A stretch of DNA of 64,000 nt from Acetothermia bacterium 64_32 (GTDB lineage Bacteria; Bipolaricaulota; Bipolaricaulia; Bipolaricaulales; Bipolaricaulaceae): assembly GCA_001508155.1 (NCBI GenBank), contig LGFI01000006.1, positions 35,157 through 99,156 on the forward strand, read 5' to 3'. The notes below the pieces were generated by a model, which had not been told where the DNA came from, ran no database searches, and saw nothing but the letters and a program-made list of their open reading frames with translations. Position numbers and translations under genes: made by a program. Positions 37,958 to 55,565 of this stretch are shown in pieces (the first letter of the stretch is position 1; the number at the start of each line of letters is the position of its first letter).

Positions 37958-38377
37958 CTAGGGGCGAGCCTCGCCGAAGGTTTCCTCCAGCCAGCGGGCG
38001 ATCCCGTCCCTGACGCGCCGGAAGGCGGCTAGGCGCTCTTCCTCCGTCCCCTCGGCGGCCGCCGGGTCGGGGAAGCCGGCGTGGAGGTACTCCTTGGCCC
38101 CGGGGAAGAAGGGGCAGGTCTCTTTGGCGTGGTCGCATACGGTGACCACGTAGTCGAACTCCTGTCCCAGGAACTCTTCGATGGATTTGGAGTGCTGGTG
38201 GGAGATGTCGATCCCCAGCTCGGCCATGACTTTGATTGCCAGGGGATGGACCCCGGTGGGCTTGATCCCGGCGCTTTTGGCCTCGAAGCGGTCGCCGTAG
38301 CGGGCGTTCACGAGACCCTCAGCCATCTGGGAGCGGGCCGAGTTATGAGTACAGATGAAAAGCACCTTCTTCTTCAC
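37958..38377 (-). CDS. arsC: Arsenate reductase (thioredoxin-coupled, LMW-PTP type)
   Basis: CTHNSARSQMAE P-loop. Confidence 0.9.
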   Translation of the reverse strand: MKKKVLFICTHNSARSQMAEGLVNARYGDRFEAKSAGIKPTGVHPLAIKVMAELGIDISHQHSKSIEEFLGQEFDYVVTVCDHAKETCPFFPGAKEYLHAGFPDPAAAEGTEEERLAAFRRVRDGIARWLEETFGEARP

Positions 38378-39444
38378 ACTCTCCCCTCTGCTGGAGCGGA
38401 AAAACGGGCGAACCAGGGTTTGGTCCTGTTGGCGATCCAGACCAGGGTGAGCATGATGGGGACCTCCTCTAGCACCCCCACCACCGTGGAAAGGGCCGCC
38501 CCGGACTCAAGGCCAAAAAGGGAGATCGCCACCGCCACGGCGAGCTCGAAGAAGTTGGAGGCCCCGATCTGGGCCGCCGGCGCCGCCACGGGATGCGGGA
38601 CCTTAAGGAGCCACGCCGCCCCGTACCCCAACGCGAAGATTAAGAAGGTCTGGATGGCCAGGGGCACCGCGATGAGGAAGATGTGGGCCGGGTTCTGGAT
38701 GATCTTCTCCCCCTGGTAGGAGAAGAGGATCACCAGGGTAAGGAGAAGCCCACCGATGGTCACCGGCCGCAGCCTGCGCAGAAAGATGCTCTCGAACCAC
38801 TCCTCCCCCCGCCGGGAGATGAAGTAGCGGCGGGTAGCGTACCCCAGCGCCAGGGGGATCACCACGTAAAGGACCACCGAAAGGAGCACCGTATCGTAAG
38901 GGACGTAGATCCGTGAGAGCCCCAAAAGCCCCTTCACGATGGGGGCATAGAGGAGGATCAGGACGAGATCGTTCACCGAAACCTGGATCAGGGTGTAGGC
39001 CGGATCGCCCCGGGAAAGATAACTCCACACGAACACCATGGCGGTACAGGGCGCGGCCCCCAGGAGCACTGCCCCGGCGTAGTACTCCCGGGCAAGCTCG
39101 GGTGGGATCCAGTGCTTGAAGAGGACGAACAGGAAGAGTGCCGAGATCCCGGCCATGGTGAAGGGCTTTATCGCCCAGTTCACGGTAAGGGTGAGGGCGA
39201 GGCCCTTGGGGCGTTTCCCCGCCTCCACGATCCGGGAGAACTCGATCTGGGCCATCATGGGGTAGATCATGAGCCAGATGAGGATCGCCACCGGGATGGA
39301 GACGTGGGCCACCTCCGCCTTCTTGAGGGCGGCGGGGAAGGCCGGGAACAGCCAGCCGATCCCGATCCCGACGAGGATGCAGAGGGCAACCCAAACGGAA
39401 AGGTACCGCTCGAACGTGGAAAGGCCTTTCTCCTTCTCCATCAT
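38374..39444 (-). CDS. acr3: Arsenite efflux transporter ACR3
   Basis: Ten-TM ACR3-family architecture. Confidence 0.9.
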   Translation of the reverse strand: MMEKEKGLSTFERYLSVWVALCILVGIGIGWLFPAFPAALKKAEVAHVSIPVAILIWLMIYPMMAQIEFSRIVEAGKRPKGLALTLTVNWAIKPFTMAGISALFLFVLFKHWIPPELAREYYAGAVLLGAAPCTAMVFVWSYLSRGDPAYTLIQVSVNDLVLILLYAPIVKGLLGLSRIYVPYDTVLLSVVLYVVIPLALGYATRRYFISRRGEEWFESIFLRRLRPVTIGGLLLTLVILFSYQGEKIIQNPAHIFLIAVPLAIQTFLIFALGYGAAWLLKVPHPVAAPAAQIGASNFFELAVAVAISLFGLESGAALSTVVGVLEEVPIMLTLVWIANRTKPWFARFSAPAEGRV

Positions 39445-39839
39445 CTACCTCCACGGGGGCCGATGACGCACACCCCTCCCTTTCGCTTCTTCATGCGCTC
39501 CTTAAGGCGCGCGAGGTCATCCGGGTGCGGGGAGAGGAAGGGCCTGAGTGCCTCGATGAGATCGGAGGGCACCGGCTCGTAATAAACCCAGGGGCCTTTG
39601 TGTTCGCCCTTGACGAAACCGACGGCCTTAAGGGCGGAGAGGTGCCGGGAGACCTTGTATTCAGGGAGGCTCAAAGCATCGGCGATCTCGCACACGCACA
39701 CTGGCTTTCCCACGGCAAGAAGGAGCGTCATGATCCGCACACGCATGGGACTTCCCAGCGCCTTTAGCCGCATCGCAAGGGCCTTTTGCACCATTTTGCA
39801 GTTGCATTTTACAGCAAATACCTCCGGTGTAAAGGCCAC
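39441..39839 (-). CDS. arsR: ArsR/SmtB family transcriptional repressor
   Basis: Winged HTH with the CVCEI metalloid-binding motif. Confidence 0.85.
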   Translation of the reverse strand: MAFTPEVFAVKCNCKMVQKALAMRLKALGSPMRVRIMTLLLAVGKPVCVCEIADALSLPEYKVSRHLSALKAVGFVKGEHKGPWVYYEPVPSDLIEALRPFLSPHPDDLARLKERMKKRKGGVCVIGPRGGR

Positions 39840-45256: not shown

Positions 45257-45493
45257 ATGGAAGAGATTGGAGCTTATGAGGCCAAGGCGCAGTTTTCCGA
45301 GCTCCTACGGCGTGTGGAGAAGGGTGAACGGTTCGTGATTACCCGACATGGGGTTCCCGTGGCCGTTTTGGGACCTGTCTCACCCCGTCACCGGGACGTC
45401 AGGGAAGTGATCAGGGCCCTAAAGGAATTCCGGAAAAAACACACCCTGGGCGGTTTGAAGATCAAAGACCTGATAGAGGAAGGACGCATGTGA
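45257..45493 (+). CDS. vapB: Type II antitoxin VapB (Phd/YefM-like)
   Basis: AYEAKAQFSELLRRVEKGERFVITRHGVPVAVL. 4-nt overlap with vapC. Confidence 0.8.
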   Translation: MEEIGAYEAKAQFSELLRRVEKGERFVITRHGVPVAVLGPVSPRHRDVREVIRALKEFRKKHTLGGLKIKDLIEEGRM

Positions 45494-45924
45494 TGAAACG
45501 GGTTCTGTTTGTGCTAGACGCATCAGTGGCCCTGGCCTGGGGGTTAGAGGACGAAAGTAACCCATATACCGATGCGGCTCTGGATGCGCTGGAACACGGA
45601 GAAGCACTCGTTCCATCTATCTGGCCGCTGGAAGTCAGTAATGCCCTTCTGATGGCGGAGCGGAGGGAGCGCATCTCCCAGGCCATGGTAGCGGAATTTC
45701 TGGAGTACCTTCGATCATTGCCCATCGTTGTGGAGCAATCCGGTCCGGAACAGATCTTCGGGGAAGTGCTCCTTCTGGCGCGCGAACAGGGCCTCTCCGT
45801 CTATGACGCGGCCTATCTGGACCTTGCCCTTCGCCGCGGACTTCCTTTGGCCACACAGGACCGGGCCCTTAGGACCGCCGCCTTCAGGATGGGCGTTGAG
45901 ATCTTCGGCCCGCAGGAGGGATGA
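45490..45924 (+). CDS. vapC: PIN-domain ribonuclease toxin VapC
   Basis: PIN acidic residues (VLDASV, D..YDAAYLDLA, ATQD). Confidence 0.85.
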   Translation: MMKRVLFVLDASVALAWGLEDESNPYTDAALDALEHGEALVPSIWPLEVSNALLMAERRERISQAMVAEFLEYLRSLPIVVEQSGPEQIFGEVLLLAREQGLSVYDAAYLDLALRRGLPLATQDRALRTAAFRMGVEIFGPQEG

Positions 45925-46122
45925 TGGAACTCCGTCGCGCAGGGTCTGCCGGAGCCCGAGTTTCAGAACCAGGGGTGGCCTTCTGGTCACTTTAGCCAAG
46001 GACCCCCTACACGCCGGAGGGTTTGTGGCGCGGGGGCTCAGCGAACGCAGATCCGAAAGTAGGGAGGGCCTTTTGTTGCCGAAAGTGAGAGGGGATTCGG
46101 GGAACAGAAAGGGGCAAGAGGC

Positions 46123-46422
46123 ATGATGGGAAAAATTGAGTTGCCCGAGGCGGAAATTGCGGCGTTTTGCCGTCGCTATAAGGTGCGGAGGCTTTCCCTT
46201 TTTGGCTCCGTACTGCGGGAGGATTTCGGTCCTAAGAGCGATATCGATATGCTTGTGGAATTCGAGCCCGGAGCACAGGTGGGTTTCTTGACCCTCAGCC
46301 GCATGGCACGGGAACTTTCCACCATCCTGGGCCGTCCGGTGGACCTCGTGCCGAGGAGCGGCCTCAAACCGGCAATCCGCGACGCCATACTGAAAGAAGA
46401 GCACGTTATTTATGCGACCTGA
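46123..46422 (+). CDS. mntA: Nucleotidyltransferase antitoxin MntA
   Basis: GSVLREDFGPKSDIDMLVEF. Confidence 0.85.
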   Translation: MMGKIELPEAEIAAFCRRYKVRRLSLFGSVLREDFGPKSDIDMLVEFEPGAQVGFLTLSRMARELSTILGRPVDLVPRSGLKPAIRDAILKEEHVIYAT

Positions 46423-46756
46423 GCGGCTGTATCTGCTGGACATCATAGAAGCAGCCGATGCCATCGCTCGCTTCCTCACCGATGTGGATGAGGGAACTTT
46501 CATGCAGGACGAATTAAGGCAAAGCGCGGTGCTGCACAAGCTTATTGTCATAGGTGAGGATGCGGCCCGTTTGCCCGCCGAATTCAAGGAGCAACATCCG
46601 GAGATCCCATGGTCGGACATTGTGGCTTTTCGTAACATTGCGGTTCATGCGTATTTCTCGGTCGACTGGCGAATTGTCTGGGTAACAGCCACGCAGGAAG
46701 TGCCTGAATTGCGCCGCCAGATCGCTTTACTGCTAGAGGACCTTGGCGATGAATGA
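46412..46756 (+). CDS. hepT: HEPN-domain toxin HepT (DUF86)
   Basis: Rx4HxY motif RNIAVHAY. Overlaps mntA. Confidence 0.85.
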   Translation: MRPERLYLLDIIEAADAIARFLTDVDEGTFMQDELRQSAVLHKLIVIGEDAARLPAEFKEQHPEIPWSDIVAFRNIAVHAYFSVDWRIVWVTATQEVPELRRQIALLLEDLGDE

Positions 46757-46940
46757 GGTGAAAAACGTATCGCACGATGACTACCGCATGACCGAACTCG
46801 GCCCCCTGCTCGAAGAGTAGCAGGTGGTGAGGTTATTGAAGCCATTAAAACCAGTCTGTGGTGGAAAACACTTGACCATGCAAAAGAACGCCTGCGTGCG
46901 GTCCTAGCGCGCAAAGCAACGCGCTGATTTCCAGGAGCGT

Positions 46941-47168
46941 GTGCGGGCTAAGGAAGAAGTTCTAGCCCGATATCAGGCGATCTTCTCTCCGGATCATATC
47001 TCCCACCTTACTGAAGAGGCGTTTCGTTCCTTTCTTTACTTCGAAAACAACAAGCATTGGACCGGTTTGTACCGCCAGGCGAACCGGCTTACCGCAGATA
47101 TGGAGGCGTTACGGGGTGCGCTTGCTATCCTGGTGGATGCATACGATTTTGGAAAAGGTGCTTTATAG
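46941..47168 (+). CDS. Orphan small ORF or gene fragment (motif LTEEAFRSFLYFENNKHWTGL)
   Basis: 75-aa GTG-initiated ORF in the lower-GC part of the island. It is preceded by an in-frame-looking fragment ...EVIEAIKTSLWWKTLDHAKERLRAVLARKATR*. The family is unknown to me. Confidence 0.3.
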   Translation: MRAKEEVLARYQAIFSPDHISHLTEEAFRSFLYFENNKHWTGLYRQANRLTADMEALRGALAILVDAYDFGKGAL

Positions 47169-47173
47169 AGCTG

Positions 47174-47211
47174 ATGTTCACGATTAAGCTATGTTCACGC
47201 ATCGTGAACGT
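47174..47211 (+). promoter_or_regulatory. Candidate operator: ATGTTCACG at 47174 and 47191 as direct repeats, plus inverted CGTGAACGT at 47203
   Basis: Read directly. It lies about 170 bp upstream of the AbiEi-like ORF. Confidence 0.3.
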
Positions 47212-47381
47212 CCAAAAATAGTGACCAATGGATAAAAAAGGATTTTAGACGGCTGTCTGTGGGCACTCTGTGGCCGGTTGAGGCTTGAAATCTCCCCTAT
47301 CCCGGTGGAAGAGCAGGTTAGCCCAGTCCGCCCGGATGCAGTGGTACGACTGACCCTCCCGAGCGGGAAAACTATCGACGT

Positions 47382-48275
47382 GTGGTTGAAGTCAAAGCCC
47401 GACTCCGGCCATCTACGGTCCCTGAGATCCGACCCAGCTCGCCACTTACAAGGAACAGGCAGGCTGCAGTGCTAGTCGCTGCGCCCTACGTCCCGGAGAC
47501 GCTAGCTCAAAAGCTTCGTGATCAGGGGCTTTGGTTCGTGGGCAGTCTGGGCAATGCATACATTGAAATGCCAGGGGAAATACTGATCTACACTACCGGA
47601 AAACGACCGGCTCGCTGGCAGCCCCCAAACGCATCTTGGATGAGCGCACAGGGTGCCAAGGTCCTATTTCAGCTTCTCATCCTCGGCTCCAGAGTCCACG
47701 CCACCTATCGCGACATTGTCCGAAACACTGGTGTGTCGCTCGGAATGGTTTCCAAAATCATCACGAGCCTCCTCGGAAGAGGAGTAATCAGCCCTCGTGC
47801 CCGGGGCGTCTACGAGATCGTAGAGCCCCACCGACTCTTGGAGATGTGGAGTGACGCTTACGCGCTCAAGTTGCGGCCGAAGATCTCGCTGGGACGGTTC
47901 CGATCGCTGTACGGCGCGGACTTCGCCAGGATGTTCAAGGAGACGAGCAAAGCCGAGATGAAAAGTGTGGTCATTGGTGGAGAATATGCAGCGGACAAGC
48001 TGACCGGGTACCTGCGGGCCGGCTTGGTGAGCCTTTATGTGCCCCCAGATCGTGTCCGGGCCGTGCTAGGGGTGTTGAGGCTGGCCCCCTCATCGGAGGG
48101 GAACATAGAACTGTACGAGGCATTCGCTAAACGGCTCACGATGCCCCGCTCCAGAAAATGGCCACCCCTCGCACATCCAGTCCTTGTATACGCCGAGCTT
48201 TTGGCCACCGACGATCCCCGCTGCGGGGAGGCAGCCCGCAGGCTAAAGGAAAGGTATCTACCATGGATCCAGTAA
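47382..48275 (+). CDS. AbiEi-like putative type IV antitoxin / wHTH regulator
   Basis: wHTH segment GVSLGMVSKIITSLLGRGVISPRARGVYEIV. It overlaps the start of a downstream AbiEii-like NTase remnant, as abiEi/abiEii genes do. The ORF-track start is GTG at 47382; an alternative in-frame ATG lies at 47640. Confidence 0.45.
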   Translation: MVEVKARLRPSTVPEIRPSSPLTRNRQAAVLVAAPYVPETLAQKLRDQGLWFVGSLGNAYIEMPGEILIYTTGKRPARWQPPNASWMSAQGAKVLFQLLILGSRVHATYRDIVRNTGVSLGMVSKIITSLLGRGVISPRARGVYEIVEPHRLLEMWSDAYALKLRPKISLGRFRSLYGADFARMFKETSKAEMKSVVIGGEYAADKLTGYLRAGLVSLYVPPDRVRAVLGVLRLAPSSEGNIELYEAFAKRLTMPRSRKWPPLAHPVLVYAELLATDDPRCGEAARRLKERYLPWIQ

Positions 48276-49045
48276 ACGCCTTGAGCCGCATATTGTCGCG
48301 GCTCTATGCCATGTTACAAACGCGCTTACCCGATCTCGGCTTCCCTACGCGTTGATCGGGGCGAACGCATTGATCCTTCAGGGAGTGAAGTTAAGCCGTT
48401 CAACGCGTGACCTCGACTTCGTGATGGCTCTCCACCGCGGATTGGATTCTGAAACGGGCCGGAATGCGCTCTTCCAGTATCCCTCATCGCTTTTACACGG
48501 AGTCAGGGGTTGAGCTGGATGTGCTACCACTGGATCCGCCAGCGGAACGTCAACAAGAGATCCACTTTCCGAATGGAGAAAGGATTTCCGCCATTGGACT
48601 TGCCGAAGCCCTGCGATGGTCCTCGGAGATCAACGTTGGGTAGTGCATCGTCCGTGTGGCCAAGTTACCCGTTTTAGTCGCCCTGAAGCTCCACGCTGCA
48701 ACGCACCGGGTTGGAGAGCAAGACCTCCGGGATGCCTTCACTGCGATGCAGCAATACGCCAGCGAAGGGGAGCGGCGGTTCCTCGAAGTAAATTATGAAA
48801 CACACCCCGAGCTCGAGTACGAGGCCGCAGGCGCGTTCCTCCTCGCTCGCGACCTGCACAAACACGCTGACGAGTCAAGACTAATCCACATCCGGGCAGA
48901 CGTGGAGACACTCCTCGCGGATGAAGGCATGAGCAGCCAACGAGAACTTGGCCTTCGCTTTGATCCACTCCTCCGTGCTTTTCGGTTGGGCCTGGAAGAA
49001 AGTCTTTTCAATGTCCGGCTACAAGTCCCCCACCTGCAAGCCTAG
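48264..49045 (+). pseudogene. AbiEii-like (DUF1814) nucleotidyltransferase toxin gene, multiply disrupted
   Basis: Pieces: ...LPDLGFP, then after a -1 shift YALIGANALILQGVKLSRSTRDLDFVMAL, a stop, ...TESGVELDVLPLD..., a stop, IVRVAKLPVLVALKLHAATHRVGEQDLRD... The pieces are separated by a frameshift and in-frame TGA and TAG. Confidence 0.5.
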
Positions 49046-49288
49046 GATCTCCAAGACATCGACTGCGTGGGCGCAGCCAAGGCAGGCCAGTTGTGGCCGC
49101 GTTCGAGTTTGCCCGCCGCTTCTTCCAACGGGCAAAGAGGGAGATCACCCGGCAGCTTGCTGAAGCAGGGAAAATCCCGGGGATTGAGCCTTCAGACCAC
49201 CTCATCGTTACCCGGGGAGGTTGGCTTTCCCTCCGGCGCGAAGGACACCTCTAACTTGTGTCGTGGCATTCCTGGCTTCCGGGCTACC

Positions 49289-49338
49289 TTGACGTAGTAG
49301 GGTGGGCCTTTTATCATAATATTGCAAAGTTGTGCAAT
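49289..49338 (+). promoter_or_regulatory. Promoter and candidate ArsR operator of the second ars-type operon
   Basis: TTGACG, a 17-nt spacer, TATCAT/CATAAT, then the inverted repeat ATTGCAAAGTTGTGCAAT at 49321-49338. RBS AGGAGG lies before the ATG at 49355. Confidence 0.5.
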
Positions 49339-49354
49339 AAAGCAAGGAGGCTGA

Positions 49355-49642
49355 ATGGACAAAGACTTCCTAATCGCGAGCGTGGCCAAGGCGCTGGCGA
49401 GCCCGGTGAGGGTCCGGATCCTCAAAATCCTGGAGGAGGGGGAGCGGTGTGGATGTGAGCTTGTGCCGCTCCTTTCGCTCGATCCCTCGGTGGTCTCACG
49501 GCACCTCTCGGTCCTCGCCCGGGCGGGGCTGGTGGAGTCCCGCCGGGACGGGGTCAGGATCCTCTGGCGACTTTCCAGCCCCGAGATTTCCCGGCTCCTT
49601 CGGTGTCTTGAAAGCCTGGCCTGCGAAAAGGAGGCCGTATGA
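49355..49642 (+). CDS. arsR: ArsR/SmtB family repressor (CxC type)
   Basis: ERCGCELVPLL corresponds to the ELCVCDL metalloid site. Confidence 0.85.
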   Translation: MDKDFLIASVAKALASPVRVRILKILEEGERCGCELVPLLSLDPSVVSRHLSVLARAGLVESRRDGVRILWRLSSPEISRLLRCLESLACEKEAV

Positions 49643-50952
49643 GCCGGAACCTCAAGCTCTTCGCCTGGATCGCGGGGACGTTCCTCTTCGCCTACTTCGT
49701 CCCCTTCTCCCACCCCAAGGTCCAAAAGGCGCTCACCGAGGCGTTCCTCATGCTTCAGGAGTACGCGCGAGAGCATGTCCTCACCTGCCTTGTTCCCGCC
49801 TTCTTCATCGCCGGGGCGATCTCGGTCTTCATCTCGCAGGCGGCGGTGATCCGGTATCTGGGGTATCGGGCGAAGAAGGTCCTGGCCTACGGGGTGGCCT
49901 CGGTTTCGGGGACGATCCTTGCCGTGTGCTCCTGCACCGTCTTGCCCCTCTTCGCCGGGATCTACAAGCGCGGGGCAGGGCTCGGGCCGGCCATCGCCTT
50001 CCTCTACTCGGGGCCGGCGATCAACATCCTCGCCATCATCCTCACAGCCAGGGTCCTGGGGGCCTCTCTCGGCCTTGCCCGGGCGGTCGGAGCGGTCCTC
50101 TTTTCCGTCGTCATCGGCCTCTTAATGCACCTAATCTTCCGCAAAGAGGAACGTGAAAAGGCCGAGGCGGCCCTGGCAATGCCCGAGCCCGAGCGCCCGA
50201 AGCGTCCCCTATGGAAGACGGCGGTGCTTTTTGCCCTGATGATCGCGGTGCTTGTGTTCGCCAACTGGGGGCGGCCGAGCTCGGTGACCCTGCACCTTTC
50301 TGACGGCACGGTCATCACCGGGATCCGCGCCGGGGAGGAGGCCGATGCCATCCTCGTGAAGCTTCCCGATACCGGGGAGATGCTGCACGTGGCCAAGGCC
50401 GAGATCGTTTCCACCGAATACGCCCAAAGCGCCTACACGACGCTTTGGCGCTACCGGTTTGCGGTGGCGGGCGTCTTCCTCCTCGTCCTCCTTTCTCTCC
50501 TTCCCGCCTGGATGGAGCGAGAGGAGGGGAAGGCCTGGCTACATTCCACCTGGGATTACGCGGTGATGATCCTTCCCTATCTCTTCGGGGGGGTGCTTGT
50601 GGCCGGGTTCCTTTTGGGCCGTCCGGGGTCAGAGGCCCTGATCCCGGCCCGCTGGATCCAGGTCGCAGTGGGAGGCAATTCCTGGGCGGCGTGCGCCATC
50701 GCGTCGGTGGCCGGGGCCCTCATGTACTTTGCCACCCTCACCGAGGTCCCGATCCTTCAGGGCCTCATCGGAGCGGGGATGGGTCCGGGGCCGGCTTTGG
50801 CGCTGCTCCTCGCGGGCCCTGCCCTTTCCCTTCCCAATATGCTCGTCATCCGCAGGATCCTGGGGACCAAGAAGACCTTGGCCTACGTGACCCTGGTGGT
50901 GATCGCCGCCACCCTGACCGGAAAGCTCTACGGGACGGTGGTGGGACCATGA
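49639..50952 (+). CDS. DUF318-type permease, ArsP-like (CSC motif)
   Basis: Two permease halves. VCSCTVLPLF resembles the ArsP TPFcSCS motif. A ~90-aa soluble insert lies between the halves. Confidence 0.65.
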   Translation: MSRNLKLFAWIAGTFLFAYFVPFSHPKVQKALTEAFLMLQEYAREHVLTCLVPAFFIAGAISVFISQAAVIRYLGYRAKKVLAYGVASVSGTILAVCSCTVLPLFAGIYKRGAGLGPAIAFLYSGPAINILAIILTARVLGASLGLARAVGAVLFSVVIGLLMHLIFRKEEREKAEAALAMPEPERPKRPLWKTAVLFALMIAVLVFANWGRPSSVTLHLSDGTVITGIRAGEEADAILVKLPDTGEMLHVAKAEIVSTEYAQSAYTTLWRYRFAVAGVFLLVLLSLLPAWMEREEGKAWLHSTWDYAVMILPYLFGGVLVAGFLLGRPGSEALIPARWIQVAVGGNSWAACAIASVAGALMYFATLTEVPILQGLIGAGMGPGPALALLLAGPALSLPNMLVIRRILGTKKTLAYVTLVVIAATLTGKLYGTVVGP

Positions 50953-51194
50953 AGAGGTGTTGTGATCTGAGGAGCATCGAGTTCATCGAGGTCCAAGGCA
51001 GGAAGGTGGGGATCTTCGGGCTGCGGGAGGCGATCGCGGAGGTCTCTTCCCTTGGACTTTCGGACGAGGAAAGGATCGCCGAGGAGCTCCTTTCGCGGAT
51101 CGCCGCCCGGAACTACGTCTCCCGCGAAGCCCGTCCCGCTTACAAGGAGGCGCTCCTCCGGGAGTACCGAAAGGCGGTGAGAAAGAATGGTTGA
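50949..51194 (+). CDS. Small hypothetical protein with an N-terminal CC pair
   Basis: 81 aa starting MKRCCDL, ATGA-coupled to the permease. The ORF track draws an upstream extension from 50445, which I judge spurious. Confidence 0.45.
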   Translation: MKRCCDLRSIEFIEVQGRKVGIFGLREAIAEVSSLGLSDEERIAEELLSRIAARNYVSREARPAYKEALLREYRKAVRKNG

Positions 51195-51549
51195 GAGGGC
51201 GCTTCTTGTCTGCTTCGGCGGGATGTCCAACGTGGGGACCATGACGGGCCTTGCGGCTCTGGAGCTTGCCCGCGCCGGTGAGGCCACCATCTTTTGTCTA
51301 GCATCGCTCGCAAACGGCGATCCGGTGGTGAGAAAGCGCCTTAAAGAGGCGGAGAGGATCGTGACGGTGGACGGTTGCCCCCTCGCTTGTGCCAAGAGGA
51401 TCGCGGAGCGGGCCGGCTTCCCCCCACACCGGTCCCTGGTGCTTTCCCAGGACCTGGGGATCGCCAAGGGCCCGCCGATGAAGGTGGCCGAGGAGGACGT
51501 GGCCCGGGCCGCCGCACTTATCCGGGAGGCGCTGGGAGAGAAAGCTTGA
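51187..51549 (+). CDS. DGC-domain putative zinc-binding protein
   Basis: VTVDGCPLACAKR (DGC motif) plus additional Cys residues. Confidence 0.6.
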   Translation: MVERALLVCFGGMSNVGTMTGLAALELARAGEATIFCLASLANGDPVVRKRLKEAERIVTVDGCPLACAKRIAERAGFPPHRSLVLSQDLGIAKGPPMKVAEEDVARAAALIREALGEKA

Positions 51550-51553
51550 GGCG

Positions 51554-51835
51554 ATGAAAAAGGACCGCGGGCTATTGAAGGGGTTTGCGTACATCAAGAC
51601 GTCGTTTCCCCCTTGTCATCCGGGGGAGGCGGAGTGGGTGCGGGCCCTCATAAACCCCACCTGGGAACGCCGCGGGGAGATCGAGCCGAGCTACAAGACT
51701 TGGGCCAAGCTCACCGCACTCTGGGTCTACAGGCATCTCCCCAAGAACAACCGTGGCCGTTGCGGGCAACTCACATGCATGGCATCCACCCTCAGGCTCG
51801 TGGGAGAGGGGGCGACGATCCAGCGTTGGGTGTGA
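51554..51835 (+). CDS. Hypothetical Cys-containing protein
   Basis: 93-aa ORF within a tightly coupled operon. Confidence 0.4.
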   Translation: MKKDRGLLKGFAYIKTSFPPCHPGEAEWVRALINPTWERRGEIEPSYKTWAKLTALWVYRHLPKNNRGRCGQLTCMASTLRLVGEGATIQRWV

Positions 51836-51848
51836 AACCTAAAAGGAG

Positions 51849-52097
51849 GTGGTTTTAATGAAGATCGAGGTACTCGGGACCGGCTGTCCCAAGTGTCAGG
51901 CGACCATCAGGAACGCGGAGCAGGCGGTGCGGGAGCTTTCGATCCAGGCGGAGATCGCCAAGGTGGATGATCTTGCGGAGATCGCGGCCCGGGGGGTGAT
52001 GGTGACCCCGGCCCTGGCCATCGACGGCGAGATCAAGTGCTCCGGCCGCATCCCGACGGTTGAGGAGATCAAGTCCTGGCTTAAGGAGGACCCATGA
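51849..52097 (+). CDS. Thioredoxin-fold redox-active disulfide protein (small CPKC protein)
   Basis: KIEVLGTGCPKCQ...PALAIDGEIKCSGRIPTVEEI. Confidence 0.75.
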   Translation: MVLMKIEVLGTGCPKCQATIRNAEQAVRELSIQAEIAKVDDLAEIAARGVMVTPALAIDGEIKCSGRIPTVEEIKSWLKEDP

Positions 52098-53131
52098 GGG
52101 TTTGGTGTTTGGTGTTGCTCGTGGGGCTGGGGGCCCTGGCCGGCCCCCAGCTCCGGGTGGACCAGCCGGTTTACGACTTCGGGCAGGTCACCGAGGGTTA
52201 CGTGGTGAAGCACACGTTCCTCATCACGAACGTAGGGGATGCCCCGGCGAGGTTCACCTATCCCCCCATCACCAGCTGCGGCTGCACCACCGTCCCGCTG
52301 CCCAAACAGGAGCTTGCCCCGGGCGAATCCATGGAGCTTCCCGTCCTGTTTGACTCAAGCGGCTACGGGGGAAAGGAGGTCACCGAGACGGTGACCCTTT
52401 ACCTGGAGGGGGAAAGCCCGTTGCGCCTGGTATTGCAGGGCTTTGTGGAGCCGGCGGGGGAGCACCAGCGGCCGGCCTCCACCCTGTTTTACAGCTACTA
52501 CATCCTGGTGGACGTGCGGGCCCCGGAGGCGTTCGCCAGGGGGCACCTTTTGGGGGCAGTGAACATCCCGCTTGCGGAGCTCCCCAAGCTCATGACACGG
52601 CTGCCCGAGGGGGCCAGGGCCGTGCCCATCTTCGTCTATGACGAGACAGGCCAGGGAGCATCCCAAGGAGTTGGGGTGCTCGTGGAAGGGGGCTTTTACT
52701 TTGCCCGCAGTCTGGCCGGAGGGCTCTCGGGCTGGTGGCAAGGCTACGGGGACCTCTTCTGGCTCGGGGAGCCCCCCACCGGGCTTGGCGCCCCAGAGGA
52801 GGGGGAAAGGGCGGTGTCCTCGGGGAGACTGGCCAGGGACTACCTGCTCCTCTTGGACCTGCGGCCCGCCGAGGAGTTCGCCCAAGGGCACCTCCCCGGG
52901 GCGGTGAACGTGGAGCCGGAGGCCCTCCCGAGATGGGTATGGGGACTTCCTCTGCCTGAGGCCCTCCCCCCCGGGGTCAAGCTCACCGTTTGGTGCCTTG
53001 ACGAGGATGGGGAGGTGGCCGCTCGGGTGGCGGGTTCCCTGCAAGCGGCCGGGCTCCCCGCCTACGCCGTGGTGGGGGGACTTAATCAGTGGCGAGAGCT
53101 TTACGGACAGGACCTCTTCTGGAGGCCATAG
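52094..53131 (+). CDS. Secreted DUF1573-domain protein fused to two rhodanese-like domains
   Basis: Signal peptide. PVYDFGQV...ITSCGCTTV (DUF1573). Two LVDVRAPEEF / LLDLRPAEEF rhodanese repeats. The first active-site position is Asp, not Cys. Confidence 0.7.
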   Translation: MRVWCLVLLVGLGALAGPQLRVDQPVYDFGQVTEGYVVKHTFLITNVGDAPARFTYPPITSCGCTTVPLPKQELAPGESMELPVLFDSSGYGGKEVTETVTLYLEGESPLRLVLQGFVEPAGEHQRPASTLFYSYYILVDVRAPEAFARGHLLGAVNIPLAELPKLMTRLPEGARAVPIFVYDETGQGASQGVGVLVEGGFYFARSLAGGLSGWWQGYGDLFWLGEPPTGLGAPEEGERAVSSGRLARDYLLLLDLRPAEEFAQGHLPGAVNVEPEALPRWVWGLPLPEALPPGVKLTVWCLDEDGEVAARVAGSLQAAGLPAYAVVGGLNQWRELYGQDLFWRP

Positions 53132-53150: not shown

Positions 53151-53179
53151 TTGACCCCCGGGAACCGCCCAGATAAAAT
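53151..53179 (+). promoter_or_regulatory. Sigma70-like promoter (TTGACC, 17 nt, TAAAAT) for the GntR operon
   Basis: Read directly. It is followed by the small inverted repeat TCGGTTGACCGA. Confidence 0.45.
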
Positions 53180-53199
53180 TTGCTCGGTTGACCGGACAA

Positions 53200-53910
53200 A
53201 TGGAGGAAAAGCTCTACGCGAGGATCAAGGACTGGCTTCGTCTTGAGATCGAGGCGGGGCGGTATCGGCCCGGGGACCGCATCCCCACGGAGCATGAGCT
53301 GATGGAGAGGTTCGGGGTGTCCAGGGCCACGGTGCGGCATGCCATTCAGGAGCTGGTCCTGGAGGGCTGGCTTTACAGGGTGCAGGGGAGTGGGACCTTC
53401 GTGGCCAGGCCGAAGTACCGGCAGACCCTGTCCCGCCTCACCAGCTTCACCGAGGACATGCACCTTTTGGGCCTCACCCCCCGGGCCCGGCTGCTCCAGT
53501 TCCAGGTGGAGGGGGCAAGGCCCCCGGTGGCCGAGGCCCTGGGGATCCCCCCCGGGTCCCAGGTGCTCAGGATAGAGCGGCTGCGCTATGCGGACGATGA
53601 GCCCATGGCGATCAACCTTTCCATCCTGCCCCGGGAGCTTTTGCCCGACCTGAACCCCGCCGAGCTGGAAGGGAAATCCCTTTATAACATTTTAGAGAAA
53701 AAATATGGCTTTATCCTATCAAGGGCTGAGCAGACGTTGGAGCCGGCCCTGGCCGATGAGTACACGGCCAAGCTGCTTGAGGTCCCGGTGGGGTCGCCGC
53801 TCCTTTTGGTGGAGGGGGTGGTGTACCTGAAGAACGGGGTCCCCATCGAGTGGGTGCAGATCCGTTACCGCGGCGACCGCTACAAGTTCCACATCGTCTC
53901 TGTCAGATAG
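53200..53910 (+). CDS. GntR family transcriptional regulator (HutC/UTRA type)
   Basis: N-terminal wHTH RIPTEHELMERFGVSRATVRHAIQEL and a UTRA effector domain. The ORF track gives an alternative TTG at 53188. Confidence 0.85.
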   Translation: MEEKLYARIKDWLRLEIEAGRYRPGDRIPTEHELMERFGVSRATVRHAIQELVLEGWLYRVQGSGTFVARPKYRQTLSRLTSFTEDMHLLGLTPRARLLQFQVEGARPPVAEALGIPPGSQVLRIERLRYADDEPMAINLSILPRELLPDLNPAELEGKSLYNILEKKYGFILSRAEQTLEPALADEYTAKLLEVPVGSPLLLVEGVVYLKNGVPIEWVQIRYRGDRYKFHIVSVR

Positions 53911-53984
53911 GGGGTGATATATGGAAGATAGACCCTGACAAAACAGAAATCTTTACTCAACTCAGTAATTAAGGAGGGATTAAT

Positions 53985-55565
53985 ATGAAAAAACTTATGG
54001 TCGGTGTCTTTTTATCCCTGTTGATCGGGCTTTTGGTGGTCGGCCAAGGGGTTCCCCGTGAGCGGACGCTGGTCATCGCCACTGGGCTGCAGCCCTCGAC
54101 ATTGGACATCGGGGTGGGGTACGAGGCGGCCGCGATAAACGTGAACTTGGCGGTCTATGAGCGCCTTGTCCGCTATAAACCCGGGACCGTGGAGGTGGAG
54201 CCGGAGCTTGCCAAGTCCTGGACTGCCTCTCCCGACGGCTTGGTTTGGACCTTCACGCTCCATCCGGGGATCGTTTTCCATGACGGCACCCCGTGTGACG
54301 CGGCGGCGGTGGTGTTCAGCTTCCAACGGGCCGTGGCCATCAACCTCGGGCCGGCCTGGATGCTCGAACCCATAGAGAAGGTCGAGGCGGTGGATGATCT
54401 TACCGTCCGGTTCACCCTCAATCGTCCCTATCCCGAGTTCCTACAGGTTTTGGCCAACATCTTCGGCACGGGGATCGTCTCCCCCAGCGCCGTCGAGGCC
54501 CACGCCACCGCGGATGACCCCTGGGCCCAGGAGTGGCTGGCAAGCCACATGGTGGGGACCGGCCCTTACAAGTTCGTGGAGTGGGTCAAAGGCCAACACA
54601 TAATCCTCCGCCGGTTCGAGGGATACTGGCGCGGTTGGAGCGAAAAAAAGAACAACATCGAGCAGGTCATCATCCGTTACATCACCGAGCCCTCGGTACA
54701 GCGGCTCTTGCTCGAGCGGGGGGATGTGGACATCGCCATGGACATCTCCGTAGACGACTGGGCGCTTCTCAAAAACGCCTCCGGGGTAGTCCTCGTTGAA
54801 GAGCCCTCCATGCATGCCACCTACCTCCGGTTCAACTGCGCTGCCGGGCCCACCGCCGATGTGCGGGTCCGCAAGGCTGTTCGTGCTGCGCTTGACTATC
54901 AGGGGATGATCGACTACGTGCTTCAGGGGCATGCCGTGCAGATGCAGGGTGCTGCGGCCATCGGGCTCCCCTGTCATAACGACGAACTCCCCCTGCCAAA
55001 GCAGGATCTGGACCTCGCCCGGAGGCTTTTGGCCGAGGCCGGGTACCCAAACGGGGGCTTTACCTTGGAGTACGTATACGAATCCGGCCACGAGGATCGC
55101 CGTAGGGTGGGAGAGGTCCTCCAGGCGAGCCTAGCAGAGCTCGGAATCGACCTCAAGATCACCGAACTCCCCTGGCCGGACCTGTGGGAGCGGGTCTCCG
55201 CCTCTGATCCGGAGCGGACCCCGGCCATCGTGGCCAACGGTTGGTGGCCGGACTACGCCGACGTGATCAACTTCCTCTACCCCATGTACCACTCGAGCCA
55301 ATGGCCCCCGGTGGCGTTCAACATCGGCTTTTACAAGGACGAAGAGGTGGACAAGCTCCTGGATCAGGCCCAGGTGGAAACAGACCCCACCGTGCGCTGT
55401 GATCTCCTCAAGGATGTCCAAGCCCTGATCTACGACGACTGCCCCGATATCGACCTCTACCACCTTACCACCCGGGTTGCCCTGCGTGACTGGGTGAAGG
55501 GCTACGTCTACAGCCCCATCTACACCGAGGGCTTTTTCCTCTACGACATGTGGCTGGAGAAGTGA
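53985..55565 (+). CDS. ABC transporter substrate-binding protein (peptide/nickel family 5)
   Basis: Signal peptide and the SBP_bac_5 architecture. Confidence 0.9.
   Translation: MKKLMVGVFLSLLIGLLVVGQGVPRERTLVIATGLQPSTLDIGVGYEAAAINVNLAVYERLVRYKPGTVEVEPELAKSWTASPDGLVWTFTLHPGIVFHDGTPCDAAAVVFSFQRAVAINLGPAWMLEPIEKVEAVDDLTVRFTLNRPYPEFLQVLANIFGTGIVSPSAVEAHATADDPWAQEWLASHMVGTGPYKFVEWVKGQHIILRRFEGYWRGWSEKKNNIEQVIIRYITEPSVQRLLLERGDVDIAMDISVDDWALLKNASGVVLVEEPSMHATYLRFNCAAGPTADVRVRKAVRAALDYQGMIDYVLQGHAVQMQGAAAIGLPCHNDELPLPKQDLDLARRLLAEAGYPNGGFTLEYVYESGHEDRRRVGEVLQASLAELGIDLKITELPWPDLWERVSASDPERTPAIVANGWWPDYADVINFLYPMYHSSQWPPVAFNIGFYKDEEVDKLLDQAQVETDPTVRCDLLKDVQALIYDDCPDIDLYHLTTRVALRDWVKGYVYSPIYTEGFFLYDMWLEK

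Follow-up and report, generated by a model that had tools for sequence, protein, structure and literature searches.

The intramembrane Cys-Ser-Cys pair is the hallmark soft-metal(loid) site of the ArsP family, and the ArsEFG system of Shewanella putrefaciens (Chen, Zhang and Rosen 2019, Environ Sci Technol 53:6182) reportedly consists of an ArsE-ArsF-ArsG trio. C. jejuni ArsP pumps out MAs(III) and trivalent roxarsone, but not arsenite (PMC6205960). Selenoproteins of the SO_0444 family carry Sec-Ser-Cys in place of the CSC (bioRxiv 10.1101/2022.07.06.499078), and this replacement marks the CSC as the functional site. Trx_3 and CcdA in ars operons were earlier proposed to serve reduction (PMC2963123). 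The window, i.e. the whole 64-kb stretch of DNA analysed here, contains a real and conserved operon of seven genes from an uncultured Bipolaricaulota bacterium, and this operon belongs, as a local variant, to a gene module widespread beside arsenic-resistance genes.

All seven genes are on the plus strand where the original prediction had placed them, in the order arsR, ArsP_1 permease, p81, DGC, 93-aa ORF, MTH895/ArsE-type thioredoxin and exported DUF1573/rhodanese protein (Table 1). Overlaps of 4 nt are found at the arsR/permease, permease/p81 and thioredoxin/DUF1573 junctions and one of 8 nt at the p81/DGC junction, and the 93-aa ORF is flanked by gaps of 4 nt and 22 nt. The clear -35/-10 promoter described before is present, being one of only two such sites in 5.1 kb, and its -35 TTGAC is invariant in the upstream regions of five orthologous loci, amid flanking DNA that has diverged. 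The presumed 18-bp operator palindrome turned out to be an inverted repeat with arms of 6-7 nt around a 6-nt spacer, not a full palindrome. The window has a single copy of its sequence ATTGCAAAGTTGTGCAAT (49321-49338), with 0.02 expected, and the putative operator is kept upstream of arsR in eight Bipolaricaulota loci whose flanking DNA has diverged. ArsR would bind to this inverted repeat. As proposed, the genes form one transcription unit under predicted ArsR control, apart from the classical arsR-acr3-arsC set.

Table 1. Features of the operon and of the second ars locus in the window
Feature	Position	Strand	Details
Sigma-70-type promoter	49289-49317	+	TTGACG-17 nt-TATCAT; 10/12 consensus matches
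Putative ArsR operator	49320-49339	+	Inverted repeat TATTGCA-N6-TGCAATA, between -10 element and ribosome-binding site
Ribosome-binding site	49344-49350	+	AAGGAGG, sequence reading; 4 nt 5' of arsR ATG; conserved in orthologs
arsR, ArsR/SmtB repressor	49355-49642	+	95 aa; HTH_5; NF033788 79.9 vs cutoff 55
ArsP_1 (DUF318) permease	49639-50952	+	437 aa; PF03773, E 1.6e-74, 251 bits
p81	50949-51194	+	81 aa, starts MKRCC; unannotated family associated with ars clusters
DGC-domain protein	51187-51549	+	120 aa; PF08859, 90 bits
Decayed PF04060 [4Fe-4S]-type protein gene	51554-51835	+	93 aa; Pfam 21.8 vs cutoff 23
MTH895/ArsE-family thioredoxin-like protein	51858-52097	+	79 aa; PF13192 95.5 bits; TIGR00412 104.8 vs cutoff 62
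Exported protein	52094-53131	+	345 aa; signal peptide, DUF1573, two rhodanese-homology domains
Classical arsR-acr3-arsC set	37958-39839	-	

The CGCEL metalloid site expected in ArsR is found within ERCGCEL, with the CGC in helix alpha-3, and the protein has two C-terminal Cys. In an alignment with R773 ArsR the CGC matches Cys32 and Cys34, which are As(III) ligands, and an equivalent of the third ligand Cys37 is absent. Among the Bipolaricaulota ArsR orthologs both the CxC and a C-terminal C-x6-C are conserved. Across phyla, the CxC sensor site is kept in 29 of 32 ArsRs encoded directly upstream of ArsP_1 genes.

The Pfam check against an unrelated family was run, and the match firmly supports the permease as a true ArsP_1/DUF318 member. 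Its predicted ArsP-like CSC motif lies at residues 97-99, inside a membrane helix according to hydropathy. The insert described earlier as 90 aa and soluble does exist, but alignment and hydropathy give a central insert of ~105 aa, in which two membrane helices (192-210 and 272-290) surround an acidic soluble loop of ~60 aa (211-271). It is common to Bipolaricaulota and, in divergent form, to some Planctomycetaceae. At least two ArsP_1 subtypes could be distinguished, with AVCSCT (the window type) and PFCSCS. The permease is below the curated subfamily cutoffs, scoring 127 vs 300 for SO_0444 and 120 vs 325 for SaoE, and its best NCBIfam match is SO_0444 Cu/Zn efflux.

This match could suggest that the operon exports a soft metal (Cu, Zn, Cd or Hg), using an SO_0444-like permease, a thiophilic-metal-sensing ArsR and Cys-rich metal chaperones, which we consider unlikely. 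The CxC sites of helix alpha-3 occur also in Cd/Pb/Zn sensors of the ArsR/SmtB family, and the NCBI label for DGC proteins is 'putative zinc-binding', both in line with such a function. On the NT-26 plasmid the genes permease-Trx_3-rhodanese-OsmC are followed by a heavy-metal P-type ATPase, but the same locus also adjoins arsR-arsC-arsC-acr3. The low SO_0444 score argues against metal efflux as well, and so does the synteny of related loci in other genomes, which is with acr3, arsC, arsA/arsD and arsM, while cop, czc and mer genes are not part of it. The set of Ca. Bipolaricaulis sibiricus is followed directly, in the same orientation, by acr3 and an LMWP-type arsC.

We surveyed 80 DGC-anchored loci from Bipolaricaulota, Chloroflexota, PVC phyla, Desulfobacterota, Leptospirales, Firmicutes and several archaeal groups, counting the partners within 4 kb on the strand of the DGC gene. 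ArsP_1 is found in 54 of the 80 loci, Trx_3 in 59, the two together in 49, ArsR in 49, and Acr3 or ArsC in 33. The gene set had been called unusual; its core ArsR-ArsP_1-Trx_3-DGC is instead widespread, and the co-occurrence analysis suggested as a check shows that the families co-occur widely. The survey HMMs gave zero stray matches in the remainder of the 64-kb window. The arsenic link made originally is supported by the ars synteny, the CxC of the ArsRs, the export of trivalent organoarsenicals by ArsP as characterised member of the permease family (PMC6205960) and the MTH895/ArsE thioredoxin.

A secreted CIPC thioredoxin plus a CcdA-like or DsbD-like membrane protein is encoded in 45 of the 80 loci, and OsmC and DsbA-like proteins are also found in module loci elsewhere. 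Such redox-relay parts dominate the module in other genomes, and they raise the idea of thiol-disulfide maintenance with no toxicant export: on arsenic stress the cell would make proteins able to re-reduce or shield dithiols that have been damaged, with a thiol compound or some other solute as the cargo of the permease and with the exported CGC protein protecting the cell's outer face. It would fit that ArsG is itself a DsbD_TM-type protein and that Trx_3 and CcdA had been given a reduction role (PMC2963123). We find this doubtful, as the window operon has lost exactly the relay parts and kept the permease, the only characterised ArsP_1 members export metal(loid) species, and the CSC motif is within a membrane helix. 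The system had been pictured as possibly periplasmic and thiol-based; its periplasmic part is weak here. The usual extracytoplasmic partners in other genomes are a CIPC thioredoxin and a CcdA/ArsG-like protein, in some cases together with ArsF, and none of these was found across the whole window.

In PVC bacteria and Leptospirales the wider module includes all three of ArsE, ArsF and ArsG, and the window thioredoxin falls fully within the MTH895/ArsE family. Still, it is hardly credible that the operon works as an ArsEFG-type pathway, reducing the nitro groups of aromatic arsenicals (roxarsone, nitarsone) and then exporting the amines. ArsF and ArsG are missing from the operon and the entire window, a gene content that largely refutes this candidate, and synthetic nitroaromatic arsenicals would be an implausible selective agent for an uncultured Bipolaricaulota lineage.

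The newest element of the operon is p81, whose family is nameless and, like most of the helper proteins, has never been studied. The protein consists of a flexible N-terminal tail with vicinal Cys, then a beta-hairpin and three helices. Neither p81 nor its family, which comprises at least 565 clusters at E<=1e-3, is covered by a Pfam or NCBIfam model. The members have CC/CxC in an N-terminal tail or are fused to an ArsE-like domain: the vicinal Cys pair of the tail is present in 77 of 121 stand-alone members versus 3 of 29 fused to an ArsE-type Trx_3 (Fisher p 1.5e-7), and in one case the fusion partner is an ArsF-family domain. All five members with genomic context read (family profile E<=1e-12) are in an ars-type cluster. 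The contexts of p81 include ArsP_1-p81-Trx_3-DGC-Acr3 in a Methanomicrobiaceae archaeon, PadR-ArsP_1-p81 in two loci (one then with ArsM, 360 bits) and ArsR-Trx-DsbD_TM-p81-Acr3. It is dispensable, being deleted in the B. sibiricus lineage and present in 13/80 module loci.

The DGC-domain protein is present as predicted and has four conserved Cys in the alignment (C9, C37, C64 and C68). Its AlphaFold2 model (pLDDT 94.7) shows a three-layer alpha/beta fold, to which no solved structure is closely related. The 93-aa ORF, listed before as a Cys-containing hypothetical protein, is the degraded gene remnant of a PF04060 Fe-S protein, whose full-length relatives have 175-185 aa. Compared with a 185-aa ORF in locus L002 and its 179-aa ortholog in L007, it has a 67-aa internal deletion and has lost its C-terminus and two of the four cluster Cys; the identical 93-aa form is found in independent assemblies. 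Given this decay within the operon, selection on the set may be relaxed. The CPKC thioredoxin-fold, redox-active-disulfide protein was correctly recognized, with matches to TIGR00412 and PF13192 and the motif GTGCPKC. It starts at ATG 51858 and not at GTG 51849, based on the gene calls made for the identical sequence in other assemblies (L001 and a Logan contig) and on the L002 ortholog.

The secreted protein with DUF1573 fused to two rhodanese-like domains was also found as described. Its N-terminus is MRVWCLVLLVGLGALAG|PQ, and its DUF1573 domain is Ig-like with an S-C-G-C motif. Asp at the catalytic Cys position had been noted in the first rhodanese domain, which is right, but it is not limited to that domain: the residue matching GlpE Cys65 is Asp in both, and likewise in both domains of all ten Bipolaricaulota orthologs read. 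Lacking the catalytic Cys in both domains, the protein cannot be a sulfurtransferase. Both rhodanese loops are acidic, a property that disfavours the binding of anions (e.g. arsenate or thiosulfate). The HMM scan found no CcdA-like or DsbD-like gene in the 64-kb window, which leaves the exported protein without a local source of reducing power.

The rhodanese, the DUF1573 and a thioredoxin of families with selenoprotein members also bring to mind sulfur or selenium trafficking, e.g. making or handling thioarsenates or persulfides outside the cell. Genes for cysteine desulfurase, NifU, TusA and YeeE are near some related loci, and single-domain rhodaneses with a true catalytic Cys are found in related Chloroflexota clusters and on the NT-26 plasmid. 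These genes and the weak NCBIfam matches to DUF1573/OS_HP2, DF-family and TsoB/TsoR agree with such trafficking, which we nonetheless regard as quite improbable. The Tso and selenoprotein matches are all far under their cutoffs, the catalytic Cys is replaced in the window protein and its orthologs, and only 10/80 module loci have DUF1573/rhodanese.

The most likely function is arsenite- or organoarsenical-induced thiol-assisted efflux, with an organoarsenical, arsenite or another soft metal as candidate substrates. We think it on balance probable that this is an accessory arsenic-resistance operon, self-repressed by ArsR and induced by trivalent arsenicals, in which helpers assist the efflux. 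Reading the observed gene content, motifs, operator and gene-order conservation and ars synteny, we infer the inducer, the substrate, the transport direction and the role of each helper as follows. ArsR would sit on the inverted repeat between the -10 element and the ribosome-binding site, and leave the DNA when a trivalent arsenical bridges the Cys-Gly-Cys pair of helix 3, possibly with a C-terminal Cys as third ligand. Arsenite could be the inducer, as could a methyl or aryl arsenite, for which two sulfur ligands are enough. The ArsP-family permease would be the main effector, expelling the thiol-bound species. A cytoplasmic layer for thiol hand-over and maintenance may be formed by p81 with its Cys-Cys tail, the DGC protein with its four Cys and the ArsE-like thioredoxin with its CPKC; their tasks would be to capture the arsenical, to maintain it or the Cys pair of the permease in reduced form, and to pass it on to the permease, by a logic comparable to ArsD feeding ArsA. 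At the outer face, the exported DUF1573 (CGC) protein is probably a binding or receiving protein and not an enzyme. Several features count against arsenical efflux: the permease is far below both subfamily cutoffs and its nearest named relative is a Cu/Zn exporter; the Cys37 equivalent is missing, p81 is dispensable and one gene has decayed; the exported protein has acidic rhodanese loops and no local reducing power.

Among the known systems, ArsP (TCDB Organo-Arsenical Exporter family) shares with the window permease the PF03773 domain (251 bits), the Cys-x-Cys signature in a membrane helix, ArsR control and an acr3 in the genome. The window permease differs from ArsP in its 105-aa central insert, with two extra helices and an acidic loop, and in its dedicated thiol partner genes. 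For ArsEFG, whose NCBIfam models are TIGR00412, NF040494 and NF040495, the window thioredoxin is an ArsE-family member, relatives of p81 are fused to ArsE-like domains and one to an ArsF-like domain, and the wider module with the window's core genes holds ArsE-ArsF-ArsG in other phyla. However, the window has no ArsF or ArsG, and the published trio has no ArsP_1, DGC or p81. It is unlikely that the nitroreduction chemistry applies here. The SO_0444 and SaoE/SaoT (SAO) systems likewise combine a CSC ArsP_1-type permease with a thioredoxin-like protein of small size, and their partner proteins, like those of the window operon, repeatedly carry CC/CxC motifs (10.1101/2022.07.06.499078). In contrast, the window permease is far under both equivalog cutoffs, SaoP, SaoA, SaoB, SaoX and SaoL are absent among its neighbours, and the genomic association is with arsenic genes. 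Compared with the CcdA/DsbD-TlpA relays in ars operons (PMC2963123), where DGC is usually followed in the module by genes for a secreted CIPC thioredoxin and a CcdA-like protein, the window operon has neither and ends in an exported DUF1573 protein with two pseudo-rhodanese domains. ArsD, the arsenic metallochaperone of the ArsAB pump, offers a functional parallel to p81 and to no other protein of the set: each is a small protein of the cytoplasm that has vicinal Cys close to its N-terminus and a gene next to that of the transporter it would serve.

The seven-gene operon headed by arsR is a local variant of a widespread module. The original interpretation is partly supported: synteny and family assignments fit an ArsP/ArsE-type accessory ars module, but the gene set is not unusual, given how widespread the module is. 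The operon itself was confirmed after corrections to the 93-aa ORF, the rhodanese Asp, the permease insert and the palindrome, and the family assignments were upheld by Pfam and NCBIfam. It comes from an uncultured member of the Bipolaricaulota (Acetothermia), and its sequence recurs identically in a JGI metagenome and in other assemblies. We describe below its gene content, motifs, conserved operator and synteny as directly observed. The gene junctions include three ATGA-type 4-nt overlaps and one 8-nt overlap.

Features of the accessory ars operon and of the classical ars set in the window
Feature	Position	Strand	Remark
Promoter-like site TTGACG-17-TATCAT	49289-49317	+	1 of only 2 such sites in 5.1 kb
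Inverted repeat TATTGCA-N6-TGCAATA	49320-49339	+	3' of the promoter-like site
Ribosome-binding site AAGGAGG		+	between the inverted repeat and the seven tightly packed genes
arsR	49355-49642	+	Pfam and NCBIfam
ArsP_1/DUF318 permease	49639-50952	+	251 bits
81-aa protein starting MKRCC (p81)	50949-51194	+	without Pfam/NCBIfam family match
DGC protein	51187-51549	+	Pfam
93-aa ORF	51554-51835	+	remnant of a PF04060-type gene
Thioredoxin_3 / TIGR00412 'MTH895/ArsE family' protein (Trx_3)	51858-52097	+	CPKC
345-aa protein	52094-53131	+	signal peptide, DUF1573 domain, two rhodanese domains
Classical arsR-acr3-arsC set	37958-39839	opposite to the operon	

The regulatory DNA is conserved where a repressor would be expected to act. 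What had been described as an 18-bp palindrome is really a 6-7-nt inverted repeat around a 6-nt spacer, and it occurs once in the 64 kb with 0.02 occurrences expected. An alignment of five orthologous upstream regions keeps the -35 TTGAC and the TGCA-N6-TGCAATA block, while the DNA farther upstream is unalignable among strains. The core pattern is present in one copy in each of eight Bipolaricaulota loci, directly 5' of arsR in those checked by coordinates or alignment (L002-L004, L011 and L014). This regulatory site thus appears to be under selection. Its location between the -10 element and the ribosome-binding site suits a repressor, and ArsR probably binds to the inverted repeat.

The type-1 As(III) site of R773 ArsR consists of three Cys of helix alpha-3 (Cys32, Cys34 and Cys37; CVCDLC), and a two-Cys site suffices for methyl or aryl arsenite. 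The window regulator belongs to the ArsR/SmtB family (PF01022, 59.5 with a cutoff of 22; NF033788, 79.9 with a cutoff of 55) and has the winged-helix HTH_5 domain. In an alignment with the R773 ArsR sequence, its CGC (Cys24 and Cys26) appears to match Cys32 and Cys34, with Val in the Cys37 column. C-x-C is found at the sensor position in 29 of 32 ArsRs encoded directly 5' of an ArsP_1 permease in the fetched loci, mostly as GERCVCEL. Two C-terminal Cys are kept in the Bipolaricaulota orthologs; a C-terminal Cys could act as the third metalloid ligand, and with such a ligand arsenite would be possible too. The window ArsR is predicted to be of the arsenite-sensor kind.

The permease covers profile positions 4-293 of 294 in ArsP_1/DUF318 (PF03773, 251.2 bits with a cutoff of 32.3), and its CSC motif (residues 97-99) lies within a hydrophobic segment. 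The proposed 90-aa soluble insert has to be redrawn: relative to the short family members there are ~105 additional residues, in which two helices, a hydrophobic one at 192-210 and another at 272-290, flank an acidic loop (211-271) with predicted solubility. The charge distribution indicates that the loop probably faces outward. We know of no ArsP_1 protein other than that of C. jejuni with demonstrated arsenical transport. The substrates of C. jejuni ArsP are MAs(III) and trivalent roxarsone; arsenite is not exported (PMC6205960). Members of the SO_0444 subfamily, annotated for Cu/Zn efflux, may have Sec-Ser-Cys in place of CSC (bioRxiv 10.1101/2022.07.06.499078), so that the operon might be thought to encode a soft-metal efflux system. 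The window permease falls below the cutoffs of both curated subfamilies, scoring 126.9 with a cutoff of 300 for SO_0444 (NF033936) and 119.6 with a cutoff of 325 for SaoE (NF040736), and we consider soft-metal efflux unlikely.

The same genes travel together in many other genomes. We used the DGC protein as the anchor for a genome scan with one genome per species, because the p81 family has no stretch conserved enough to search, and collected 80 loci. The bacterial ones are from Bipolaricaulota, Chloroflexota, Lentisphaerota, Planctomycetota, Verrucomicrobiota, Desulfobacterota, Leptospirales and a Desulfofundulus isolate, and the archaeal ones from several lineages including Bathyarchaeia, Hadarchaeota and Methanohalophilus. 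HMMs of the window proteins and their homologs were compared with all ORFs of each locus, counting matches within 4 kb on the DGC strand. Trx_3 was found in 59/80 loci, ArsP_1 in 54, both together in 49, ArsR in 49, a secreted CIPC thioredoxin in 51, a CcdA/DsbD_TM-like protein in 50, Acr3 in 28, ArsF-like proteins in 18, ArsC in 14 and the PF04060 protein in 14, all of these being minima because many loci end at contig ends. As a small negative control, the same HMMs recovered only the expected genes over the 64-kb window.

The typical order is ArsR-ArsP_1-(p81)-Trx_3-DGC-Trx(CIPC)-(ArsF)-CcdA-like, followed in some loci by ArsR-ArsC-Acr3; in Bipolaricaulota the recurring order is ArsR-ArsP_1-p81-DGC-(FeS)-Trx_3-(DUF1573/rhodanese). 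The closed genome of Ca. Bipolaricaulis sibiricus carries, all co-directional, ArsR, ArsP_1, DGC, a secreted thioredoxin, a DsbD_TM protein, Trx_3, DUF1573/rhodanese, Acr3, a DsbA-like protein, LMWP-ArsC and a large DsbD-like protein, and one ars cluster there corresponds to the two separate loci of the window. A minimal pair, 'permease, thioredoxin family protein', occurs on proteobacterial plasmids; NT-26, an arsenite oxidiser, has a rhodanese and OsmC after it, next to arsR-arsC-arsC-acr3. The many thioredoxin-like and DsbD-like partners would also fit a thiol-disulfide maintenance module in which the toxicant itself is not exported. The window operon, however, lacks these relay parts and keeps the permease, and we regard such a module as improbable. 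One locus, L012 (CAZEYM010000020.1, labelled 'uncultured Thermotogaceae'), has ArsR, ArsP_1, DGC, FeS and Trx_3 in the Bipolaricaulota order and a DGC 74% identical to that of the window; its sole p81 match came from an iterated HMM that we discarded. It looks like a binning error or a recent transfer.

Sequence comparison places the 81-aa protein p81 in a large family that lacks annotation and is linked to genes of arsenic-resistance transport. A word-indexed search gave only six close homologs; 1.84 billion cluster representatives, searched exhaustively with a profile, yielded 565 clusters at E<=1e-3 and 57 at E<=1e-10. No family member tested has a Pfam or NCBIfam match in the p81 region. 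Of the 150 best-ranked representatives, 29 carry a C-terminally fused ArsE-type Trx_3 domain (G-x-G-C-x-x-C), and one carries a fused transmembrane segment plus an ArsF-family domain. A vicinal Cys pair (CC, CxC or CxxC) in the N-terminal tail occurs in 77/121 stand-alone members vs 3/29 fused ones (Fisher p 1.5e-7, indicative only because the sequences are related). This pattern suggests that p81 is a constant core whose dithiol is supplied by its own tail or by the fused domain.

By a clean alignment-based HMM, p81 is present in 13/80 DGC loci, and in the Bipolaricaulota loci it starts 0-3 nt past the permease stop. An earlier count of 43/80 loci with 'fusions' was rejected as an artefact of the iterated HMM, which had picked up long ORFs crossing the permease gene in another frame in GC-rich genomes; that HMM also matched an out-of-frame ORF of the window and was replaced by the clean one. 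The surroundings of five further members (E<=1e-12, readable contigs) are ars-type clusters in every case: a Methanomicrobiaceae archaeon has ArsP_1-p81-Trx_3-DGC-Acr3, two loci have PadR-ArsP_1-p81, one of them adjoining an arsenite methyltransferase (360 bits), and subsurface metagenomes have ArsR-Trx-DsbD_TM-p81-Acr3. A weak fused member (E 2e-7) has an unrelated context. The PadR-headed loci (L094 3506-6125 and L092 3684-7308) encode a short ArsP_1 (~305 aa), p81 and a conserved 53-aa ORF without family match, and then the arsenite methyltransferase (L094) or a cysteine desulfurase and a NifU-like protein (L092). The module can dispense with p81, which is deleted in the B. sibiricus lineage. 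Two independent deletion scars were seen, one in the B. sibiricus locus (L005 7001-7411), where the DGC protein begins with 'MSGC...' as a leftover of the p81 N-terminus, and one in protein P0033, where the p81 stretch 'GIVGLREAITEV' is joined straight to the DGC stretch 'SNVGTLTG'.

The DGC protein is a clear member of PF08859 (90.1 with a cutoff of 27). An alignment of 22 sequences shows C37, D62 and C64 without exception and C9, G63 and C68 in at least 90%, giving four conserved Cys (C9, C37, C64 and C68). Its predicted model, of very high confidence (pLDDT 94.7), has a three-layer alpha/beta fold and no close solved relative. The thioredoxin, with the motif GTGCPKC, passes the MTH895/ArsE model (TIGR00412, 104.8 with a cutoff of 62). 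The 93-aa protein between them, taken at first for a hypothetical protein, turned out by comparison with locus L002 and Chloroflexota homologs to be a gene remnant of a PF04060 [4Fe-4S]-type protein, a family of the RnfB / CdhE N-terminal type. The L002 ortholog is a 185-aa ORF (174 aa as called on the contig) and the Chloroflexota homolog (locus L007) has 179 aa; both show a clear PF04060 motif (49.8 and 42.4 bits), while the window ORF scores 21.8, below the cutoff of 23. Relative to these intact orthologs it has a 67-aa in-frame internal deletion and has lost its C-terminus; in the C-x2-C-x4-C-x16-C motif, the first Cys has become Arg and the truncation has removed the fourth. Independent assemblies show the same form, and it is therefore no assembly error.

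The exported 345-aa protein combines a Cys-bearing domain with two altered rhodanese domains. It matches DUF1573 (PF07610, 63 with a cutoff of 26.1) and contains SCGC, the orthologs having C-[GS]-C. DUF1573 selenoproteins carry U-G-C (PMC13188914); the identical motif, compared unaligned, makes CGC the likely counterpart of UGC and so likely a functional site. The rhodanese fold is recognised over two stretches (PF00581, 95.8 bits with a cutoff of 22.2) and also by PDB matches to rhodanese proteins. These domains and the selenoprotein-like motif might point to sulfur or selenium trafficking. However, an alignment with E. coli GlpE places Asp in the Cys65 column of both domains, so the Asp noticed in the first domain is correct but not limited to it, and the B. 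sibiricus ortholog also has Asp in both. With neither domain retaining the catalytic Cys, the protein is no sulfurtransferase, and we consider sulfur or selenium trafficking very unlikely. Around the second loop the only Cys is found two residues upstream, where the B. sibiricus ortholog has Val; D-x-x-G is kept in both loops in 10/10 Bipolaricaulota orthologs read. The loops are acidic (D-E-T-G and D-E-D-G), which would argue against binding of thiosulfate or arsenate anions. Iterated 'DUF1573' and 'Rhod' HMMs built from full-length proteins were indistinguishable, and the sequences were read directly instead.

One Bipolaricaulota MAG (L011, 3-2357 and 6064-7128) encodes two paralogous DUF1573 proteins, each with two rhodanese domains: the gene upstream of arsR is of the window type (TCGC, WCLDEDG), the gene downstream of Trx_3 of the B. 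sibiricus type (NCSC, WIVDDDG). On the NT-26 plasmid (NZ_FO082821.1; L090 6228-6722), the rhodanese after the permease-Trx_3 pair retains the catalytic Cys (VACAVGARS). CGC and CC motifs abound in its C-terminal tail, a vicinal-Cys tail of the kind that p81 also has.

The regions on both sides of the operon were also inspected. Between a lipocalin gene and the operon, a small toxin-antitoxin/defence islet (window 45257-48275; 2309-5327 of L001, the same sequence in another assembly) encodes PhdYeFM-PIN, a nucleotidyltransferase (MNT)-HepT pair and an AbiEi antitoxin-like regulator. Its cargo is strain-variable: L002 has an AAA_14/DUF4143 ATPase and RadC, and in L003 the lipocalin gene is followed directly by arsR. 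About 1 kb downstream of AbiEi (48158-49200) holds only short ORFs in shifting frames, and even at E<=1 the broken ORFs between 48.16 and 49.05 kb had no Pfam match; this stretch may be a decayed AbiEii partner or non-coding. Directly 3' of the operon (53151-55565) lie a GntR/UTRA regulator and a peptide/nickel-type ABC transporter (SBP_bac_5, BPD_transp_1). No intrinsic terminator was detected after 53131 between the operon and this unit, which has its own promoter-like site (TTGACC-17-TAAAAT, 53151-53179) and appears unrelated to the ars genes.

On balance, we think it probable, if modestly so, that this is an accessory ars operon induced by trivalent arsenicals. A trivalent arsenical would cause ArsR to leave its operator, and the cytoplasmic layer of p81, DGC and the ArsE-like thioredoxin might capture, reduce and hand over the arsenical. 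The thiol-bound arsenical would then be exported by the ArsP-type permease via its CSC site, with the exported CGC protein acting at the outer face. For the substrate, the transport direction and the roles of the partner proteins, this is what we infer. Compared with the usual module, the window operon lacks the extracytoplasmic relay and adds p81 and a DUF1573 protein that carries two pseudo-rhodanese domains.

Few detoxification systems are mapped as well as arsenic resistance, and the general picture of arsenic handling in the cell is unchanged by our analysis. Beside acr3 and arsC in dozens of phyla there is a module annotated merely as 'permease', 'thioredoxin family protein' and 'putative zinc-binding protein', and placing the operon in it links the characterised ArsP and ArsEFG pieces. 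The genes of the DGC and PF04060 proteins and, most of all, those of the unnamed p81 family become candidate ars genes. The Bipolaricaulota, which to our knowledge have no cultured representative, would gain a second, independently regulated arsenic response.

The module also encloses a known gene trio. NCBIfam names TIGR00412 the 'MTH895/ArsE family', ArsF (NF040494) a 'nitrophenyl compound nitroreductase subunit' and ArsG (NF040495) an 'aromatic aminobenzylarsenical efflux permease'; the three models reportedly correspond to the 2019 ArsEFG work of Chen, Zhang and Rosen. Among module loci from PVC bacteria, Leptospirales and unclassified bacterial MAGs, 3/3 loci tested have an above-cutoff ArsF match (93-105 bits vs 60) in the gene that follows the CIPC thioredoxin, and in five the CcdA-like gene scores above the equivalog cutoff for ArsG (264-291 bits vs 200). 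The characterised trio therefore lies inside a larger module with ArsP_1 and DGC. Five loci (L043, L056, L061, L064 and L077, from PVC-group bacteria, Leptospirales and an unclassified MAG) show the string ArsR-ArsP_1-ArsE-DGC-Trx(CIPC)-ArsF-ArsG. Equating ArsF with the DGC protein and ArsG with the ArsP_1 permease was rejected, the NCBIfam ArsF being a separate membrane-anchored CxxC domain and ArsG CcdA/DsbD-like.

This raises the question whether ArsG, of the CcdA/DsbD_TM type, is an electron conduit instead of the named exporter, with ArsP_1 as the exporter. We tentatively offer, as a possibility that is doubtful when taken as a whole, that p81 is a new and widespread class of small adaptor for arsenic-resistance transport. 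Its hairpin-plus-three-helix core would dock to a transporter, usually the ArsP_1 permease, and present a dithiol from its own CC/CxC tail or a fused ArsE-type thioredoxin; by extension, ArsP_1-ArsE-DGC-Trx(CIPC)-ArsF-ArsG would form one integrated thiol-relay and efflux machine. If so, p81 would be the secondary-permease counterpart of the ArsD-ArsA metallochaperone pair, the published ArsEFG would be a mere fragment of the machine, and ArsG might be an electron conduit, not an exporter. For the window operon, ArsEFG-type nitroreduction might be proposed from its ArsE-like protein, but it is largely ruled out by gene content and we consider it extremely unlikely. ArsF (NF040494) and ArsG (NF040495) gave no match among the seven operon proteins, and neither a CcdA-like or DsbD-like ORF nor a CIPC thioredoxin was found in the 64-kb window. 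Compared with ArsEFG, the operon thus has an ArsE-like protein without an ArsF or ArsG match, and combines it with an ArsP_1 permease and a DGC protein.
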